Source: Escherichia coli
GTDB lineage: Bacteria > Pseudomonadota > Gammaproteobacteria > Enterobacterales > Enterobacteriaceae
Assembly: GCF_044647545.1 (NCBI RefSeq)
Contig: NZ_CP172818.1
DNA: 64,000 nucleotides
Reading direction: 5' to 3' (one strand)
In this document: piece by piece, positions 1,317 through 63,327 of the stretch
Position numbering within the stretch: position 1 is the stretch's first letter
Layout: each line of letters opens with the position of its first letter
The notes under the pieces: model-generated
Told to the model about the DNA's origin: nothing
What the model saw: the letters and a program-made list of their open reading frames with translations, nothing else
Databases searched by the model: none
Made by a program: the position numbers and the translations under genes

Positions 1317-1511
1317 TTTTTGGTCCTTCTCTGGTGTTGTCTGGGAAGTGTAGAGCATGGCAGGGCGGGGTGCCTGGAGTGTGACAAAGGTTACACATCG
1401 CTGTATGCAATGCTGAAAATTTCAGCACTTAGCGAGGTGCGAGCAAGCTGGCGCTTGCATGGTGGCGTGCGACAGGTATAATCCACAACGTTTTCCGCAT
1501 ACCTCTTCAGT

Positions 1512-1596
1512 GCCGAAGTGGCGAAATCGGTAGACGCAGTTGATTCAAAATCAACCGTAGAAATACGTGCCGGTTCGAGTCCGGCCTTCGGCACCA
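1512..1596 (+). tRNA. leuX: tRNA-Leu (anticodon CAA)
   Basis: An 85-nt sequence, gccgaagtggcgaaatcggtagacgcagttgattCAAaatcaaccgtagaaatacgtgccggttcgagtccggccttcggcacca. It has a long variable arm, the T-arm ggttcgagtcc and an encoded CCA end. Confidence 0.95.
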
Positions 1597-1610
1597 AAAG
1601 TATGTAAATA

Positions 1611-1633
1611 GACCTCAACTGAGGTCTTTTTTT
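1611..1633 (+). terminator. Rho-independent terminator after leuX
   Basis: Hairpin gacctca-ac-tgaggtc followed by a run of seven T. Confidence 0.65.
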
Positions 1634-1782
1634 ATGCCTGAAATCCAGTGTTTATCTATCTTTCCCGCTATATTAACTCTCTCAAGGTCAACCGATATCA
1701 ACGTACATCTACCAACATATGTTGGTACAGATGATGGTATTTCCGGTTCGATAATGCTTGTACCAACAGGGAGGGAATACGC

Positions 1783-2212
1783 ATGGCATTAACAGATATC
1801 AAAGTCAGAGCAGCCAAGCCAACGGATAAGCAATATAAGCTGACTGATGGTGGCGGTATGCATCTGCTTGTCCATCCAAATGGTTCTAAGTACTGGCGTT
1901 TGCAGTACCGTTATGAGGGAAAGCAAAAAATGCTGGCACTTGGGGTTTATCCTGAAATCACACTAGCGGATGCCAGAGTACGTCGTGACGAGGCGCGTAA
2001 GCTGCTTGCGAATGGCGTCGATCCGGGAGACAAAAAGAAAAATGATAAGGTTGAACAGAGTAAAGCACGAACCTTTAAAGAAGTCGCGATTGAGTGGCAT
2101 GGCACCAATAAAAAGTGGTCTGAAGATCACGCCCATCGTGTGCTAAAAAGTCTTGAAGATAATCTTTTTGCAGCGCTTGGTGAACGTAATATCGCTGAGT
2201 TAAAAACTCGAG
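1783..2212 (+). pseudogene. intB: P4-type tyrosine integrase, N-terminal ~143 codons only (KpLE2 integrase), cut off by the anomalous block
   Basis: Translation is MALTDIKVRAAKPTDKQYKLTDGGGMHLLVHPNGSKYWRLQYRYEGKQKMLALGVYPEITLADAR...NIAELKTR. This is a typical P4-integrase arm-binding and N-terminal SAM-like region placed directly 3' of a tRNA gene. The catalytic R..HxxR..Y domain is absent. The reading frame runs into poly-C at 2213. Confidence 0.8.
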
Positions 2213-2820
2213 CCCCCCCCCCCTCCAGTGTCTCCCCGTGTGGCCGGGACCCCCCCAAGACCCACAGCTGACCGGGGATGACGTCTCCCCGTTCCCGCCA
2301 GTCCCCCTTCCCTCACCGGCCCCCCCGACTCCCCCCCGCCCGCGAACCCACGCCTGCCGCGAAAACAGGATGAACCCCAAAAGCCGTGAAAGACGGCAAA
2401 AAGGACCCCCCCGCCCGGGGGGGGAGTAAGCGCACCGGCCCGGGCGCGGCGCCCCCCGCAACCGGCGGGGGCCGCCCAGCGCCCGGCGGACTCCCTACAC
2501 CACGACGCCCCGGCGCGGGGGCGCCCCGACGCGAACGGGTGCCGCGACGCCAAACGTCCGGCCCCGACCGCGACGAAAACCGCGACCGCCACGAAACGGC
2601 ACACACAGGCGAAACACAGCGGCCGACGCGGCGCGGACGGGAGGGCGGCCCCGCGGCCGCGGGCACGCACGGGGCACCCGCGCCAACGGAACAGACAGGC
2701 CCGCCCCGACCCCCCCGGGGGCGCGGCGCACCGGGCAGAAACCCCCCCCGGGGGCAACCGAACGCGGGCCGGATCGCAGCCGAACAACGCCCCCCCAACC
2801 CCCCCCCCCCCCGGGTGTTC
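2213..2820. other. Anomalous C/G-only low-complexity block 1 (C-rich on the + strand); not credible as coding sequence
   Basis: The composition switches abruptly after ...aaaactcgag. T is almost absent from about 2400 to 2810, and there is a C run at 2799-2812. All six frames give overlapping Pro/Gly/Arg/Ala ORFs. Normal sequence resumes at about 2821 (ctttaaccatccgc). Confidence 0.9.
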
Positions 2821-2822
2821 CT

Positions 2823-2986
2823 TTAACCATCCGCAATGGCCAACGGTTTACAGAGCATAATACGAATAGCCGTAGAGCCAGCCAGTTACGGTGGTCGCGA
2901 TGGTGTGTCCGCCAGAAAATCACCACGAATACCAGAATCGCGGCACTGACCAGAAAATGATAAACAGGAAACACGGGGAGGTTCAC
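2823..2986 (-). other. Possible 5' end of a small membrane-protein ORF whose 3' part is lost in block 1
   Basis: A GTG at 2984-2986 (reverse complement) is preceded by aggaga. Translation VNLPVFPVYHFLVSAAILVFVVIFWRTHHRDHRNWLALRLFVLCSVNRWPLRMVKG contains one clear TM helix. I do not recognise the family. Confidence 0.2.
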
Positions 2987-3488
2987 TTTGCTTTCTCCTG
3001 TAGTATTTTCTGTAGGTTCTGAACCGGTTCGAGCGGGGTTGTGAGGCTGATGGCAATCCCCGGGCTCTTCCTGCATGTTACACTGGTACTGCAACAGGGG
3101 GCCTTCGCTCCTATGACATTACTCAGTATTTTCACTACTACACCCCATCTGCCATCCATAACAACCGATTCACCCCCTCGGGAGGCGTTGTTGCCCGTCA
3201 CCCGGACAGGCATCGTTATGGACTTCTCTTGTTGCACGATCGATCAATTGTTATGCATGCTGACACCACTACCCCGGTGGGTATGACCGATGCCTTTCTC
3301 ACTCTCTTCCCGGTCATCGTCGGCCTTCCCCGTTATTGTGGCGTGTCGGCACCATCGACGGCATTTCGATGGCTGCTCAGTGTTCACTCACGTTACGGCC
3401 CGCATAACCCATTGACTTCCTGAAGAAGTCGTTTCAGGGAGAGATTCAGCCCTTTTGTTACCTCCTGGACCGCTTCCTGTCCTTCCAG

Positions 3489-3785
3489 TTGGAGCGAGAG
3501 TTAGTCGGGGCGGACTTTCACCGACGGAAAGATCGTGCATTTCAAGGCACACACAACAATATCTGCGAGCGTGCTATCCGTCCGGTCGTTATGGGACGAA
3601 AGGCCTGGTTGTTCGCTGGTTCACTGATGGCCGGGAACCGAGCGGCACAGATAATGAGCCTTCTGGAAACAGCAGTCTGGAGCCACATGCTTGGCTGACG
3701 GACGTCCTAACGCGTCTGCCCGGAGTGGCCGGAGGAGAGGTTGGCAGAGTTACTGCCTCTTGAGGGCTTTACCTTCTTTGGGTAA
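3489..3785 (+). pseudogene. IS66-family transposase, C-terminal remnant with at least two frameshifts
   Basis: The remnant is spread over three frames. Frame 1 reads ...NNICERAIRPVVMGRKAWLFAGSLMAGNRAAQIMSLLETA. Frame 2 reads ..EPHAWLTDVLTRLP. Frame 3 reads EWPEERLAELLPLEGFTFFG*. This is the conserved IS66 Tnp C-terminus (..ERAlRp.alGRKnWLFaGS..). The rest of the element is not present. Confidence 0.65.
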
Positions 3786-4081
3786 GTGATACCTGCCGTC
3801 AGGTGTTTGTGCACCGGGCCATAACCTGCAGTTGGGAATTGAACGCCTGACAACAGGAAATGAGCTAGAGCAGTAAACACGCGGGCTGACAATGGGTCAG
3901 AATATGAGTCTGCCCGGCGTTATTCTTGGGGTCAGTACTTCAGATCCAGCCTCCGGTACCAGACTAGCTAGCCCCTACGCAACCAAATAAATCAACCATC
4001 GTAAGAGTGCAATCGTTCATATACACTGCCGGTGATGGGCGGAAAAATGCGTTAATGTTGAGTTCCTCGAACCCTTACCAA

Positions 4082-4276
4082 TTAAGGGACATAGCCAGAT
4101 ACGCAACTGGCTGATGCAAGCAGTCTGATGTCTTTAGATTCGCTGGCCTGCGGGCATGACAATGTCAAACAGTCAAAGATTGTGGCGTTGACGGTCAGTC
4201 TCGGTGGTCGAAAAAGCTCAGTATTCTCGTTGGCAACCAGATAATTTAACAGTTGATGCTGAAACGAAATAGGCAT
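4082..4276 (-). CDS. Hypothetical 64-aa ORF abutting IS4; its ATG lies inside the IS4 target duplication
   Basis: Translation is MPISFQHQLLNYLVANENTELFRPPRLTVNATIFDCLTLSCPQASESKDIRLLASASCVSGYVP. I recognise no family. The longer track ORF 4082..4498 is read-through into IS4. Confidence 0.2.
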   Translation of the reverse strand: MPISFQHQLLNYLVANENTELFRPPRLTVNATIFDCLTLSCPQASESKDIRLLASASCVSGYVP

Positions 4277-4287
4277 CTTGGTTCTGT

Positions 4288-5712
4288 AATGCCAGTCAGT
4301 TAAGCAACTGACTGGCTCTTTTTCGGGGCTGTGGGGTATTTCCAGGGCCTCTCCTTTACCACTCTCGGGAAGGCCCTTTCCCTTCTTGTCGGTAATTTCA
4401 CAAGTTGTCCCATACTTGCAAGATCGCGCATCAGCTCCGGTATACGTCCCGGTGAAGCGCCCTGCAATGTCATCAGCATTCTCATCACCATTCCGCATGA
4501 TTCTGAGAAACTCAGTTGATTCGGCCAGTAACCTTTCAGATGTTCCGCCATTTTAATCATCTGATATCTCACCAGATTATAAGCCAGTAAGACACCCCGC
4601 AGCTCTTGCTCCACAAGCTCCGGTTTTTTACTTCTCAGCGTCAGCCTGCTCAGTTGCATCGTCTGTTTTATCTCCCTGTATCCCAGTTCGATTTCCCAGC
4701 GATGACTGTACAGATCCGCCATTTCTCCTCCGGGGAAGCGCATGGCGTCCGTCATCGACGTCAGCAGATGGCAGACTTTTCCTTTGCGCGTCACGGTCAG
4801 CAGGCGGGCTGTCACTTCATTTCCCAGTCCCGGCCACTTTTTTCGTGCCTGCGGGCTGGTTTTCAGCTTCACCAGATGATCGCCTTTACCCAGTTTTCTG
4901 ATCTCTTCATATTGCGCTCCCTTTCTGAGAGGTATCATCCAGTGGCGGTGTTCTCCCGCCAGGCTCCAGGCATTTAACAGTCCCAGTGAGTAATAACCTT
5001 TATCCATTAACGTCAGAGTGTTATCGCCGGTTTGTTCTATAAGTTGCTCAGCAAGCTCATTTTCGCTGTTCTTCATCGTGCCGAAGGCTGCAGCCGTCAG
5101 CAGATGGCTGGTCAGTTCCATCTGGCAGACCATTTTGACCTGCGGGTAGAGCGCCGGGTTCCCGGCATGTGTCTGGCGGGGGAAGGCTGCATCGTTCTCT
5201 GGTGTATCCGGTGTGCGCCAGAACACACCATCGATGGCCAGCAGGGTCAGGCCGCACCAGTGCGGATGCGGCGTGGCGTTATGACAGAGCTGCGCTGTTT
5301 TCGTGAACACGCGGCGGACAGCCTCACTTCCCAGGCGCTGGCGGGCCTGAATAACGGCACTGGGGGCAACGAAGGGGCGATTGCCCGGCAGCATGATGTC
5401 CAGGCGATTCACAATCTGGTGAAGAGGTTCTTTACGCTCAAGCGCCATGCCAACAATACACCAGACCATCATTTCGAGGGGAAGACGGCGCTTGCGTAGC
5501 GTTACAGTACCTGATTCGGCAAGGCAACGAGAGATGAGTTCGGGGTCGAGGTAATCCCCCAGAGAAGTCAGTGGGTTACGCAGAGAATCGTAACGGGATA
5601 CCAGATCAAGAGCCTGTCCAATGTGCATAAAAAAATCCGGAAACAAGTGAGCGTTTCCGGATTCTTACACAGCCACTGGATCGGTCAACTGATCCTTAAC
5701 TGATCGGCATTA
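4288..5712 (-). mobile_element. IS4, complete, with a 12-bp target-site duplication
   Basis: The terminal inverted repeats are taatgccagtcagttaag (4288-4305) and the reverse complement of 5695-5712, taatgccgatcagttaag (16/18 match). The direct repeat atcttggttctg is present at 4276-4287 and 5713-5724. Length is about 1425 bp. Confidence 0.95.
4300..5628 (-). CDS. insG: IS4 transposase (DDE)
   Basis: 442 aa starting at [20 protein letters not shown] and ending ...[13 protein letters not shown]. It lies wholly inside the IS4 inverted repeats. Confidence 0.92.
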
Positions 5713-9321: not shown

Positions 9322-9656
9322 TGAAGTGGCACACTGAATTTGGCCACCTGAACAGAGGTGATATGCTCACCTCAGAACAACACAGGTGCTCCAATGAAAA
9401 AAAGAAATTTTAGCGCAGAGTTTAAACGCGAATCCACTCAACTAGTTGTTAACCAGAACTATACGGTGGCAGATACCGCCAAAGCTATGGATGTTGGCCT
9501 TTCCACAATGACAAGATAAGTCAAACAACTGCGTGATGAGCATCAGGGCAAAACACCAAAAGCCTCTCCGATAACACCAGAACAAATCGAAATACGTAAG
9601 CTGAGGAAAAAGCTACAACGCATTGAAATGGAGAATGAAATATTAAAAAAGGCTAC
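9322..9656 (+). mobile_element. IS911 left part (IRL plus 5' part of orfA), interrupted by IS30
   Basis: It starts with the IS911 left inverted repeat tgaagtggcacactgaatttggccacctgaac. It ends at the IS30 boundary. Confidence 0.85.
9394..9656 (+). pseudogene. insN: IS911 OrfA (IS3 family) with an in-frame TAA and a 3' truncation
   Basis: Translation is [87 protein letters not shown]. The stop falls where intact IS911 has Trp. Confidence 0.8.
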
Positions 9657-42136: not shown

Positions 42137-42890
42137 AGATCAAAAATCACGCAATCCATACAACAAAACCAGATTTGCAATTCGTGTCACAAAATATGTC
42201 GATCTTTTTCTAAGAGGAAGATGCCATGTGAAGCCAGACGAACACTTGCGGTGGTCTTCAAAAACTAAAGATATTCTTTTAAATATCTGTTTTATAAATA
42301 ATTTATTTAGAGTCTAAATAAGGGAAGCTTTGTAAGCTAACTCAGTGAGCTTGGTGAAAATAAGTGTTTACCCGCCATCAGGCTTAGCATAATTCTCATC
42401 ATGAAATATGTTTCCTGGTTTGTGGCTTGTAACTGGTCACTCCTGAAGCCGATCTGGAGAGGCTTGTTGATGTTGGTGTTTTCAGGGTGATGCCTCACTT
42501 AGTTTGTTTGCCGTATCGCCCGGCGAACAGCTGTGATTGAGGAAGGTTTAAGTCGTAGTGACCAAAGCCATATTTACCAACGGATGCAGATGAAAAAATC
42601 GTTTCCTGCTTTCCCCCATATCTCCATGATAAAAAGGAATGTAACAATCTCATGGTCTAAACTGACGAACCAGCCAGGAATAATCGCTAGGGACCTAAGA
42701 ATTAGCATGATAATAGCCACTAAGAAATTACTGCGTTCCATGAAATAGCCATTTTGTGGCAAATGGAGTTGACTAATAATGTCATATGTGAGACGGCTAG
42801 TTGAGCGAATATTAAATTTTGCTGAATTTTTTATGTTGATTTTACTTGTTACAGAACATATCACATGATATATAGATAATAAGAGAAGAC

Positions 42891-43540
42891 AGCGCCGGGG
42901 GCCCGCGGCGCCCGCTCCCAGCGCGGCGGGGGCGGGGGGGGGATATAAGGGAGCCTCGTCCCACACCAGCAAAGGGGACGCGGCTCGAGCCCAGCGGGAA
43001 GGGGCGCGGGGAACGTCCGAAGGCGTCATACGCGTAAAACAGCCAGCGCGCGCGATGCGCACATCCCACGTTCGTCCATTCCGCGCAGGACGTGACGACG
43101 CCGGCGTTGGCGGGTTACCGCGCGGCGGGCTGCGGGGCGTTGAGGAACGCCCATAATGGCGGGCGTGCGGCTCCAACGTTCGGCTCTGTTTGGGCTGGTG
43201 CGTACCGGGTTGAGAAGCGGGTAAGTGAACGCGTTGCCGTTTTACGGCAGTGAGAGCGAGTAGCGCCCGCGCGCGGGGGGGGCGGCGGGGCGCGGCCGGT
43301 GTCCCCGGCGCGGCGCGGGTTCGTGGAGGCCACGCGCCAGTGCGGGAGTGGGCCCGGCATGCGAACGGCCGCACTGGGGGCATTCAATGACGACCTTCTC
43401 GGTTCGTGGTGGAGAGGGGGGGACGGTGGGCAGGGCGGCGGGGCGCGGCCCGGCGGGGCCGCGCACCGGGGGGGGGGGGGGGGGGGGGGGGGCGCACCAC
43501 CCCGCGTGCTGCGGGGCAGCGGTGGGCGGCCCCTCTCTCG
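42891..43540. other. Anomalous G/C-only block 2: a degenerate, compressed, inverted IS1-like sequence replacing fimB through most of fimH
   Basis: There are exact inverted word matches to the IS1 copy in this window, in collinear order. 43026-43049 matches the reverse complement of 21085-21108 (24 nt). 43070-43080 matches 21043-21053. 43146-43158 matches 20936-20948. 43195-43215 matches 20865-20885 (21 nt). 43221-43230 matches 20849-20858. 43239-43257 matches 20818-20836 (19 nt). The spacing is compressed by about 20%. There is a G run at 43468-43492. All frames give P/G/R/A ORFs. Confidence 0.85.
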
Positions 43541-43545
43541 GGAAC

Positions 43546-43825: not shown

Positions 43826-43854
43826 AAACAAAGCGCACTTTGCGACAATCCGAA

Positions 43855-49424: not shown

Positions 49425-50099
49425 TTATTTACCAATATAATTCCATTCACCATTTTTTAATTCAAACAGTTCTGGAAGAGATGACGGTTGCAGAGTCATA
49501 CGTTTGAGTGGTGCATTTTCATCACCGGGATAGGCTTCTATACCAATTATTGGGTCATTACCCAACTCAATATTAGCATTAAGTAATGCGGCAAGGGCGA
49601 ATCCGGAAGAATTTGCTACCCCTGTTACCGTCATTATCTGATCAATATAGATATCAATCCTTGGCTGCTCATTGGTCCATCTTTTTGCCTGAGAAGCTGG
49701 AAGGGTTGAAATATATCCTATCGTGGTTCCGGCATAACCAGGAACATTGCAACCAGGGCCTAATGTTATTTCATGAACTGTATAGTCCTCAACAGGATCG
49801 AAAGGGCCTTTCATAAATAAATTTAGCCGTAATCCTTTTGCTAACTCTGTGGCAGCATGCGCCTTTTTACATATACCACCATATATTTCGTCTAAAGCTG
49901 AGGTGATTTTCAAGTTTCGATAGAGCATACGTCCTGTTGTTGTAATACCATTGAATTCTCTGCATGTTTCTGTCACATAATTAAATGGCCAGGACTCTTT
50001 ACTAATATCAAGTTTTCTAATTTCGACAACGCTTTTTCTATCGTAATTATGGTTATTGCCACGAGCAAGAGGCGGAAGATAGATATTTTCCGTATCCAT
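49425..50099 (-). CDS. yjiC: Uncharacterised protein (AT-rich gene)
   Basis: 224-aa ORF, MDTENIYLPPLARGNNHNYDRKSVVEIRKLDISKESWPFNY... An in-frame upstream extension (MSMPLSNALQS*IITDNHFLHHPKVDSELTRKHERAR) is interrupted by TAA at 50175-50177, so the true start is uncertain. Confidence 0.7.
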   Translation of the reverse strand: MDTENIYLPPLARGNNHNYDRKSVVEIRKLDISKESWPFNYVTETCREFNGITTTGRMLYRNLKITSALDEIYGGICKKAHAATELAKGLRLNLFMKGPFDPVEDYTVHEITLGPGCNVPGYAGTTIGYISTLPASQAKRWTNEQPRIDIYIDQIMTVTGVANSSGFALAALLNANIELGNDPIIGIEAYPGDENAPLKRMTLQPSSLPELFELKNGEWNYIGK

Positions 50100-62377: not shown

Positions 62378-63194
<817 letters not shown>

Positions 63195-63291
63195 TCGCGA
63201 GGGGGAGGACGCTGGTGCACTAATGACGAAACAAAGGAGGGGTTCTTCACGTTTGTGAAGGTGCCGAAACTGGATATGGACTATTGAGTGA
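63195..63291 (+). pseudogene. mrr: Degraded 3' end of an Mrr-type restriction endonuclease gene
   Basis: ...ttcacgtttgtgaaggtgccgaaactggatatggactattgagtga translates to FTFVKVPKLDMDY*. This matches the Mrr_cat C-terminal pattern (..lKvpKlDmDYFe) with small indels. The similarity fades leftwards into block 3. Confidence 0.5.
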
Positions 63292-63297
63292 AATGTC

Positions 63298-63327
63298 AGG
63301 CCGCAGATGCGGCGCCATCATCCGGCC
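63298..63327. repeat. REP-like palindromic element between mrr' and yjiA
   Basis: The sequence is aggccgcagatgcggcgccatcatccggcc. Confidence 0.4.

Follow-up and report, generated by a model that had tools for sequence, protein, structure and literature searches.

A C-rich block beside the leuX integrase remnant in an Escherichia coli assembly is probably a corrupted copy of IS2

The window, i.e. the whole 64-kb stretch of Escherichia coli DNA that was analysed, carries near its left end the tRNA gene at which the leuX island is attached, the remnant of a P4-type integrase, a C-rich stretch that we call block 1, and a fragment of a phosphoethanolamine-transferase gene. The features of this locus are as follows.

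1512–1596, + strand: leuX, tRNA-Leu(CAA), the island attachment site (ARAGORN; tRNA-Leu annotation in syntenic references)
1783–2212, + strand: N-terminal 143 codons of a P4-type tyrosine integrase, a native pseudogene (open reading frame list; identity with the reference up to 2212)
2213–2815, + strand: block 1, a probable corrupted IS2, reduced from 1331 bp to 603 bp, in forward orientation, C-collapsed and T-depleted (chained score and alignment)
2799–2812, + strand: C14 homopolymer at the right edge of block 1 (homopolymer listing; no exact IS2 anchor from ~2763 on)
2816–2971, − strand: internal fragment of a phosphoethanolamine-transferase pseudogene (yjgX-like), genuine sequence that forms the right flank of block 1 (RefSeq annotation of the syntenic reference)

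The limits of block 1 (603 bp) were obtained by exact-match extension of both flanks against the closest reference. A sequence-only reading of the same DNA had placed a C-rich block at 2213–2820; its description of the composition holds, but the block ends at 2815, and normal sequence resumes at 2816 rather than at ~2821. Block 1 consists of 17.9% A, 46.9% C, 30.8% G and 4.3% T (G+C 77.8%), compared with a mean G+C of 50.2% (sd 6.5%, maximum 63.5%) and a T minimum of 13.9% in 603-nt windows (n = 593) outside the three anomalous blocks described below. The T count dwindles from 6–9 per 50 nt at the left end to 0 from 2563, which bears out the earlier remark that T is almost absent between ~2400 and 2810. 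The longest T-free stretch of block 1 measures 216 nt (2558–2773), whereas the maximum outside the blocks is 43 nt, so chance can be dismissed as the source of the composition; simple arithmetic from the composition of the window (T = 0.247) gives an expectation of ~1e-22 T-free runs of 216 nt in 64 kb. The block opens with an 11-C run (2213–2223), and the run of 14 C reported at 2799–2812 is present near its other edge. All homopolymers of at least 9 nt in the window lie within the three blocks, with the exception of one T9. The repeat architecture of block 1 is limited to low-complexity chance repeats.

The integrase frame that starts at 1783 runs clean for 143 codons and ends at 2212, as had been noted. 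In relatives, RefSeq annotates the integrase as a 447-bp ‘tyrosine-type recombinase/integrase, incomplete, missing C-terminus’, which continues for 16 bp beyond the point equivalent to 2212 and is followed by the phosphoethanolamine-transferase remnant. The integrase pseudogene and the transferase fragment thus directly adjoin, on opposite strands, in ST131-type references (the fragment lies at 2226–2384 of the syntenic reference L003, an offset of +587). The junction in the closest reference comprises 16 bp (ATTTATTAGCACCTAT), in place of which the window has 603 bp. Since the integrase is already a 447-bp pseudogene in relatives and block 1 overwrites only its last 16 bp, block 1 is not the cause of the truncation, contrary to the earlier proposal; by genome comparison, the truncation is evidently an old, lineage-native deletion that is common to thousands of genomes.

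Megablast of positions 1500–3600 against complete E. coli genomes gave matches in 5,424 of 5,426, and in none of the 5,426 did coverage reach 80%. The best matches are ST131-type strains, e.g. CB209 and O25b:H4, at 99.9–100% identity. Among the 25 best matches listed, 24 span the region in 1514 bp, compared with 2101 bp in the window; the longer span of H3, also among these 25, comes from an upstream ISEc52 insertion, and block 1 is absent from it too. Against the closest relative, the left flank (273–2212) has no mismatches and one gap and the right flank (2816–4205) one mismatch, while more than 50% of the interior of block 1, lying between them, is altered.

Outside the blocks, backbone segments of the window are 99.96–100% identical to CB209, and the island at ~4206–38807 is essentially identical to K-12. 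This 34.6-kb leuX-island stretch resembles KpLE2 of K-12 MG1655 (100.0% identity over 12000–36900), whereas the backbone on either side is CB209/ST131-like and only ~98% identical to K-12. The points at which similarity switches between K-12 and CB209 (~4205 and ~38808) are transposase and restriction-gene remnants that lie away from the corrupted blocks. The K-12-like island is present in hundreds of natural genomes, and its occurrence in a CB209-like backbone appears to be the usual mosaicism of islands. That the assembly is a chimera of K-12 and ST131, broken at the blocks, was considered and rejected, as the ends of the ~4206–38807 segment do not match the blocks. Within the otherwise K-12-identical island, substitutions relative to K-12 cluster at 9411–9807 (~14) and 11051–11985 (~21), which are IS30-adjacent and ISEc52/IS911-type transposase remnants; these clusters could reflect natural variation, IS gene conversion, or mis-polishing by multi-mapping reads.

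The interval between the two junction points of the window occupies 3.5 kb in K-12, where, as the sequence-only reading had stated, it contains the rest of intB, IS2 (IS3 family, 1331 bp) and the yjgW/X pseudogene region. The best three local alignments of block 1 to this missing segment all fall in IS2, are collinear and lie on the same strand. We scored block 1 with a substitution matrix derived from the error spectrum of block 2 (see below), complemented for the C-rich strand, and with cheap gap extension. The degradation-aware chained score against full-length IS2 is 218.9, compared with a mean of 83.4 (sd 17.7, maximum 131.5; z 7.7) for 614 other 1331-bp E. coli segments taken on both strands, and with a mean of 101.4 (sd 7.6; z 15.6) for locally shuffled block 1 against IS2. 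Reverse IS2 scores 90.7, i.e. at background level. Under three untrained scoring schemes IS2 is likewise rank 1 of 800 (z 4.3, 8.8 and 14.6), and in a cross-test of halves the matching pairs reached 25.1 and 21.0 compared with 12.6 and 8.6 for the swapped pairs. Exact k-mer sharing places IS2 in the top 1% or better, with 5–10 of 1198 control segments equal to it at some k. The anchors and the probable element end recovered by alignment are as follows.

2213–2228, + strand: C11 plus TCCAG, the probable remnant of the IS2 left inverted repeat (TAGACTGGCCCCCTGAATCTCCAGAC; global alignment, weak alone)
2263–2300, + strand: anchor 1, equivalent to IS2 ~161–204 (local alignment: ACCGGGGATGAC-GTCTCCC-CGTT-CCCGCCA)
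2344–2431, + strand: anchor 2, equivalent to IS2 ~335–459 (local alignment, ending in GCCCGGGG--GGGGAGTAAGC)
2574–2625, + strand: anchor 3, equivalent to IS2 ~727–778 (local alignment: CGAAAACC-GC--GACCGCCA-CGAAAC-GGCACACACAGG)

The IS2 counterpart of anchor 1 reads ACCGGGGATGACGGTCTCCCTCGTTGCCCGGCA, and the anchor holds the exact 14-mer ACCGGGGATGACG, seen as consecutive shared 9-mers. In anchor 3, whose IS2 counterpart is CGAAAACCTGCTGTACCGCCATCGAAACGGGCACATACAGG, every T has been lost or changed to C. Global alignment runs from the left inverted repeat (the left end of IS2 begins TAGACTGGCCCCC), which is placed at the block start, to at least IS2 ~1160; in the same alignment the right inverted repeat (GGGGCAAATCCA) and the rest of the last ~170 nt of IS2 have no counterpart in block 1. 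Deletions affect 744 of the 1361 reference positions (IS2 with 20 nt of each flank), ~55% overall, and differ by base: 71% of T, 58% of A, 54% of G and 38% of C. Substitutions to C account for 29 A, 22 G and 28 T, while C is never altered. Retention per successive 100 nt of IS2 is 0.12, 0.57, 0.24, 0.57, 0.56, 0.44, 0.47, 0.60, 0.35, 0.41, 0.41, 0.27, 0.10 and 0. With 55% of positions deleted, no InsC/InsD (orfA/orfB) transposase frame, of the kind joined in intact IS2 by a programmed −1 frameshift, is recognisable by Pfam in the six ORFs of block 1, and the 16 bp of native junction that would hold the target of a 5-bp target-site duplication are overwritten by the block. Together, the alignments show what appears to be a degraded IS2 in forward orientation, with order kept from the left inverted repeat to at least ~1160.

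The earlier statement that block 1 has no convincing collinear match to any element is thus superseded, IS2 aligning collinearly at rank 1 of 614–800 segments; the match is to a corrupted but normal 50%-GC element and not to a known GC-rich one, and for this reason does not speak against an artefact. Blastn in distant mode of block 1 against 28 Gb of E. coli genomes returned no match, and local blastn (word size 7) and nhmmer --max against 211 kb returned chance-level matches only and missed IS2. The blindness of standard blastn and nhmmer to the relationship explains the earlier failure to find a source. Very permissive gap costs, applied to a target set that was then without IS2, gave every target a high score and were uninformative. 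Other sources were tried and rejected. For IS1, to which short words in block 1 had been likened, global alignment falls below shuffled controls in both orientations (z −1.3) and IS1 chunks are absent from the top-scoring segments, so the words are attributable to chance. The rest of intB and yjgW/X gave only non-collinear matches at background level. A genuine GC-rich foreign gene or element is rejected on the lack of any blastn match in the E. coli genomes, of any exact junction match in the GTDB genomes or JGI metagenomes, and of any Pfam family or repeat architecture.

A composition scan of the window detected two other anomalous stretches only, both of them G-rich; these correspond to the mirror-image blocks that the sequence-only reading had listed.

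42880–43544, no strand assigned: block 2, a degraded IS1 in which 776 bp of reference have become 665 bp, G-collapsed (alignment to CB209 and IS1)
62382–63326, no strand assigned: block 3, G-rich to pure poly-G, covering the mdtM start, an IS1 and the mrr 3′ end (comparison with CB209)

Block 2 replaces the IS1A copy of CB209, with edges 9 bp before one IS1 terminus and exactly at the other. Its alignment to IS1 has a z of 13.7 over shuffles, with 60–80% identity in the core, and its errors comprise heavy deletion of A and T, changes towards G, and insertion of G and C. Block 3 lies at the position of another IS1 in CB209, and some IS1 words survive in it in the correct order. It contains a run of 116 G (G116; 62900–63015) together with G38, G22 and others. 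Its right part is the mrr 3′ end, 89% identical to other strains, and from the outside inwards this fringe shows TT→T, TTTT→TT and AAAA→AAA, followed by mixed deletions and substitutions and then by pure poly-G. The direction of decay is rightwards in blocks 1 and 2, towards C and G, respectively, while block 3 is worst in its middle. Blocks 2 and 3 resemble block 1 in massive base dropout, collapse to one base, homopolymers and clean flanks. On the + strand, however, they collapse to G and block 1 to C, and their element is IS1, not IS2; block 2 is much better preserved than block 1, and block 3 is worse degraded and spills into unique genes. Compared at this level, the three blocks are evidently degraded IS copies that share a non-biological error signature.

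Several further differences from the references were observed in the window. The right part of block 3 (63150–63326) is mrr, where CB209 has brnT/brnA, and between mdtM and yjiA the strain of the window evidently has a structure other than that of CB209. The IS1 at 42880–43544 in the window and in CB209 stands where K-12 has ~8.8 kb with the fim cluster (fimB–fimH); beside that IS1, CB209 has only a truncated fimbrial gene fragment annotated. Relative to CB209, the window lacks a single base at 43843, with the right edge of block 2 ~300 bp away, and another at 49525, and the alignment to K-12 is interrupted at the same two sites; residual consensus errors that cause frameshifts, or real variants, may account for them. 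In the yjgR–ahr intergenic region the window has 11 bp (268–278; GAAAGGGGCGC), compared with ~84 bp in CB209 that include the left arm of a terminator-like hairpin. The long version is found in all best-matching complete genomes listed, where a 251-bp query aligned in two pieces over 325 bp. The site, which is not an IS, may represent a fourth, miniature case of the same corruption, directed towards G, or else a deletion private to this strain.

Block 1 was not found in 5,426 complete E. coli genomes, and the exact junction string is absent from 185,579 GTDB representative genomes and from the JGI metagenomes. No IS2 abutting the integrase at this junction occurs in complete E. coli genomes, metagenomes or GTDB genomes. 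Exact-protein look-up found no record of the chimeric integrase ORF or of the junk ORFs, and Pfam (E ≤ 0.1) assigned no family to any of the six ORFs of at least 60 aa that overlap block 1. These six P/G/R/A-rich ORFs, together with the 162-aa chimeric integrase ORF, are annotation artefacts, in agreement with the earlier view of the overlapping ORFs.

We consider it very likely, on the sequence evidence assembled here, that block 1 is not genuine sequence and represents the remnant of an IS2 after a failure of sequence production. Its flanks essentially do not differ from those of relatives while its interior is unrecognisable, and 64 kb contain three lesions of this one kind, with mirrored polarity, both sibling sites being intact IS copies in the closest genome. 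At the fringe of block 3 the errors are homopolymer undercalls of the classic type; a living isolate, moreover, could not plausibly have G116, a lost mdtM start and a corrupted mrr. The absence of block 1 from all genome and metagenome collections searched argues in the same direction, as does an error process that fits no mutational mechanism known to us. Deaminases and DGR reverse transcriptases introduce specific substitutions and cause no loss of length. We know of no mutational mechanism that combines the loss of half of the positions with conversion to a single base and homopolymer runs. The mirrored corruption, towards G, of two IS1 copies elsewhere in the window shows that the damage to IS copies is apparently a property of how the assembly handled certain repeats. 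The suspicion of a systematic artefact at IS-associated sites was therefore well placed, in that all three blocks are degraded IS copies with the same signature and are absent from the other assemblies searched.

A sequence of events that would produce block 1 can be proposed. The strain would carry a real, private IS2 whose insertion point coincides with the ancient integrase/transferase deletion junction or lies no more than 16 bp from it; we infer its presence because a short unique junction gives an assembler no cause to fail, whereas a multi-copy IS does, and because block 1 opens with the left end of IS2. Accurate contigs would end at the multi-copy IS2, and the gap would then be filled from a very low-quality read or consensus that lay beyond the reach of short-read polishing. 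Failing base-calling would lose bases, homopolymers first, and default to one base, and read orientation would set whether the result looks C-rich or G-rich on the + strand. Several caveats apply. The ~55% of positions deleted far exceeds ordinary unpolished long-read error; the window also contains intact IS copies (IS4 at ~4300–5650, IS30 at ~9660–10810 and IS1F at 20669–21436), so it is not true that every repeat fails; block 3 also ruins unique sequence (the mdtM start and the mrr end), and the corruption thus reaches beyond repeats; and the presumed IS2 structure is without independent support, no other genome having IS2 at the exact site. To our knowledge, no single sequencing platform accounts for all features, two-colour poly-G being free of deletions and bounded by read length, and long reads rarely giving G116. 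A pure Illumina two-colour poly-G artefact was rejected, given that block 1 is 45% of the IS2 length over 603 bp and deletions dominate, and the model of a single read that decays one way, its junk base being constant in the read frame, was dropped because so simple a scheme does not fit all three blocks.

Documented artefact classes offer partial parallels. Errors in repeats can survive short-read polishing, as documented in PMC8812927, and poly-G is mentioned as an artefact of Illumina two-colour chemistry in PMC13465854. The residual errors in repeats of long-read bacterial assemblies polished with short reads (Polypolish paper, PMC8812927) are, like the present blocks, focused on multi-copy sequence with clean unique sequence around it, and homopolymer-length errors at the fringes are a further shared trait. 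The damage here is far worse than the ≤1% that is usual for residual errors. Two-colour poly-G (PMC13465854) has long G runs in common with the blocks, but it substitutes without deleting and is bounded by read length. Taken singly, each documented artefact class falls short of the full set of features seen in the blocks.

A corruption introduced in silico after assembly, whether by a lossy or buggy step, by deliberate noising or by generative filling of masked mobile elements, with block 1 derived from IS2 or imitating it, is improbable, though it deserves consideration. Blocks 1 and 2 begin recognisable and drift rightwards into low complexity and homopolymers, after which real sequence returns abruptly, a drift that resembles degenerating left-to-right generation. 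The block edges also lie very near IS boundaries, no platform known to us yields base dropout plus G116, and the source assembly did not turn up in the genome, metagenome and protein collections searched. Against this explanation, the right fringe of block 3 degrades gradually and in the opposite direction, through homopolymer-shortening deletions of the base-calling type, and the corrupted intervals extend past the mobile elements. The collapse to C in one block and to G in the others is, moreover, what read orientation would lead one to expect.

It is considerably less probable that block 1 is a junk gap filler unrelated to the true sequence, with a real junction of the plain ST131 type (16 bp, no IS) or of some other kind, and with its likeness to IS2 mis-recruited or due to chance. 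Such a filler would be compatible with the lack of any element at this junction in the 25 best-matching complete genomes listed (H3 having the unrelated upstream ISEc52), with the failure of every genome and metagenome searched to place an IS2 against the integrase here, and with exact k-mer sharing that is not unique to IS2. However, the collinear, chained and strand-specific IS2 signal lies beyond all controls under four scoring schemes, which excludes chance; a unique 16-bp junction gives an assembler no reason for a break; the IS2 left-end remnant sits directly at the junction; and blocks 2 and 3 occupy sites of real IS1 copies in the closest reference. That the blocks are real DNA, i.e. 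IS copies destroyed in vivo by strand-biased hypermutation and deletion through, e.g., an unknown IS-targeting defence or mutator, is very hard to credit: it would mean that mobile elements are attacked by a novel genome defence, or decay in a novel way, with about half of the bases lost, the rest driven towards one nucleotide on one strand and the adjacent genes left alone, and has in its favour only the window sequence itself, with three IS copies hit and neighbouring genes mostly spared, whereas known deaminase or DGR mutagenesis makes specific substitutions rather than a 55% loss of positions with conversion to one base, undiverged flanks around an unrecognisable interior need a rate gap of several orders of magnitude, block 3 has G116, lacks the start codon of mdtM and includes a corrupted mrr, homopolymer undercalls make up the errors at its fringe, and the 5,426 complete E. 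coli genomes hold no counterpart.

Returning to block 1 as a probable IS2 remnant, its nearest intact equivalent is the IS2 of the leuX island (KpLE2) in K-12 MG1655 (NZ_CP032667.1, ~4023668–4024998), which has the same orientation and the same neighbours, the leuX integrase lying upstream of it and a phosphoethanolamine-transferase pseudogene (yjgW/yjgX) downstream. In contrast to the K-12 copy, block 1 keeps 603 of 1331 bp, has nearly lost T, and is without an InsC/InsD frame or a recognisable right inverted repeat. In K-12, moreover, 1.06 kb of intB and 1.1 kb of yjgW/X, both missing in the window, lie between the IS2 and the positions of the window's two junction points. E. coli EM03-18-08 (NZ_CP063483.1) and 23CRST013 (NZ_AP045773.1) carry IS2 with an intact right end, at a distance of 14 bp from the counterpart of the window's right junction, and thus IS2 does adjoin such a transferase fragment in nature. 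They differ in having a paralogous transferase remnant, no leuX or integrase, 93% flank identity and the 14-bp offset, and were rejected as right-junction matches because the locus is a different one and the junction is offset. At 2961–4685 of L007 (the EM03-18-08 locus), the paralogous phosphoethanolamine-transferase gene is cut short by IS2, and the island around it carries dptF/dptG phosphorothioation-restriction genes. This arrangement gives a hint that an IS2-mediated event may lie at the origin of the widespread integrase/transferase deletion junction.

For users of this assembly, block 1 yields six spurious ORFs, stretches the integrase pseudogene into a chimeric ORF and hides the true junction. 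With at least three lesions in 64 kb, the whole assembly probably has many more, preferentially at IS copies. Gene content, IS counts, pseudogene calls and composition-based scans for islands or anomalies in this genome will be affected. Block 1 deserves masking or re-sequencing, and the assembly a quality flag. As a point of method, the source element can be recovered when the scoring is learned from a sibling block that is better preserved and gap extension is kept cheap, and this approach could serve to triage similar lesions elsewhere. For the biology of the organism block 1 carries little weight: the leuX island is well known, the truncation of its P4-type integrase is native, and the block probably adds one IS2 insertion.
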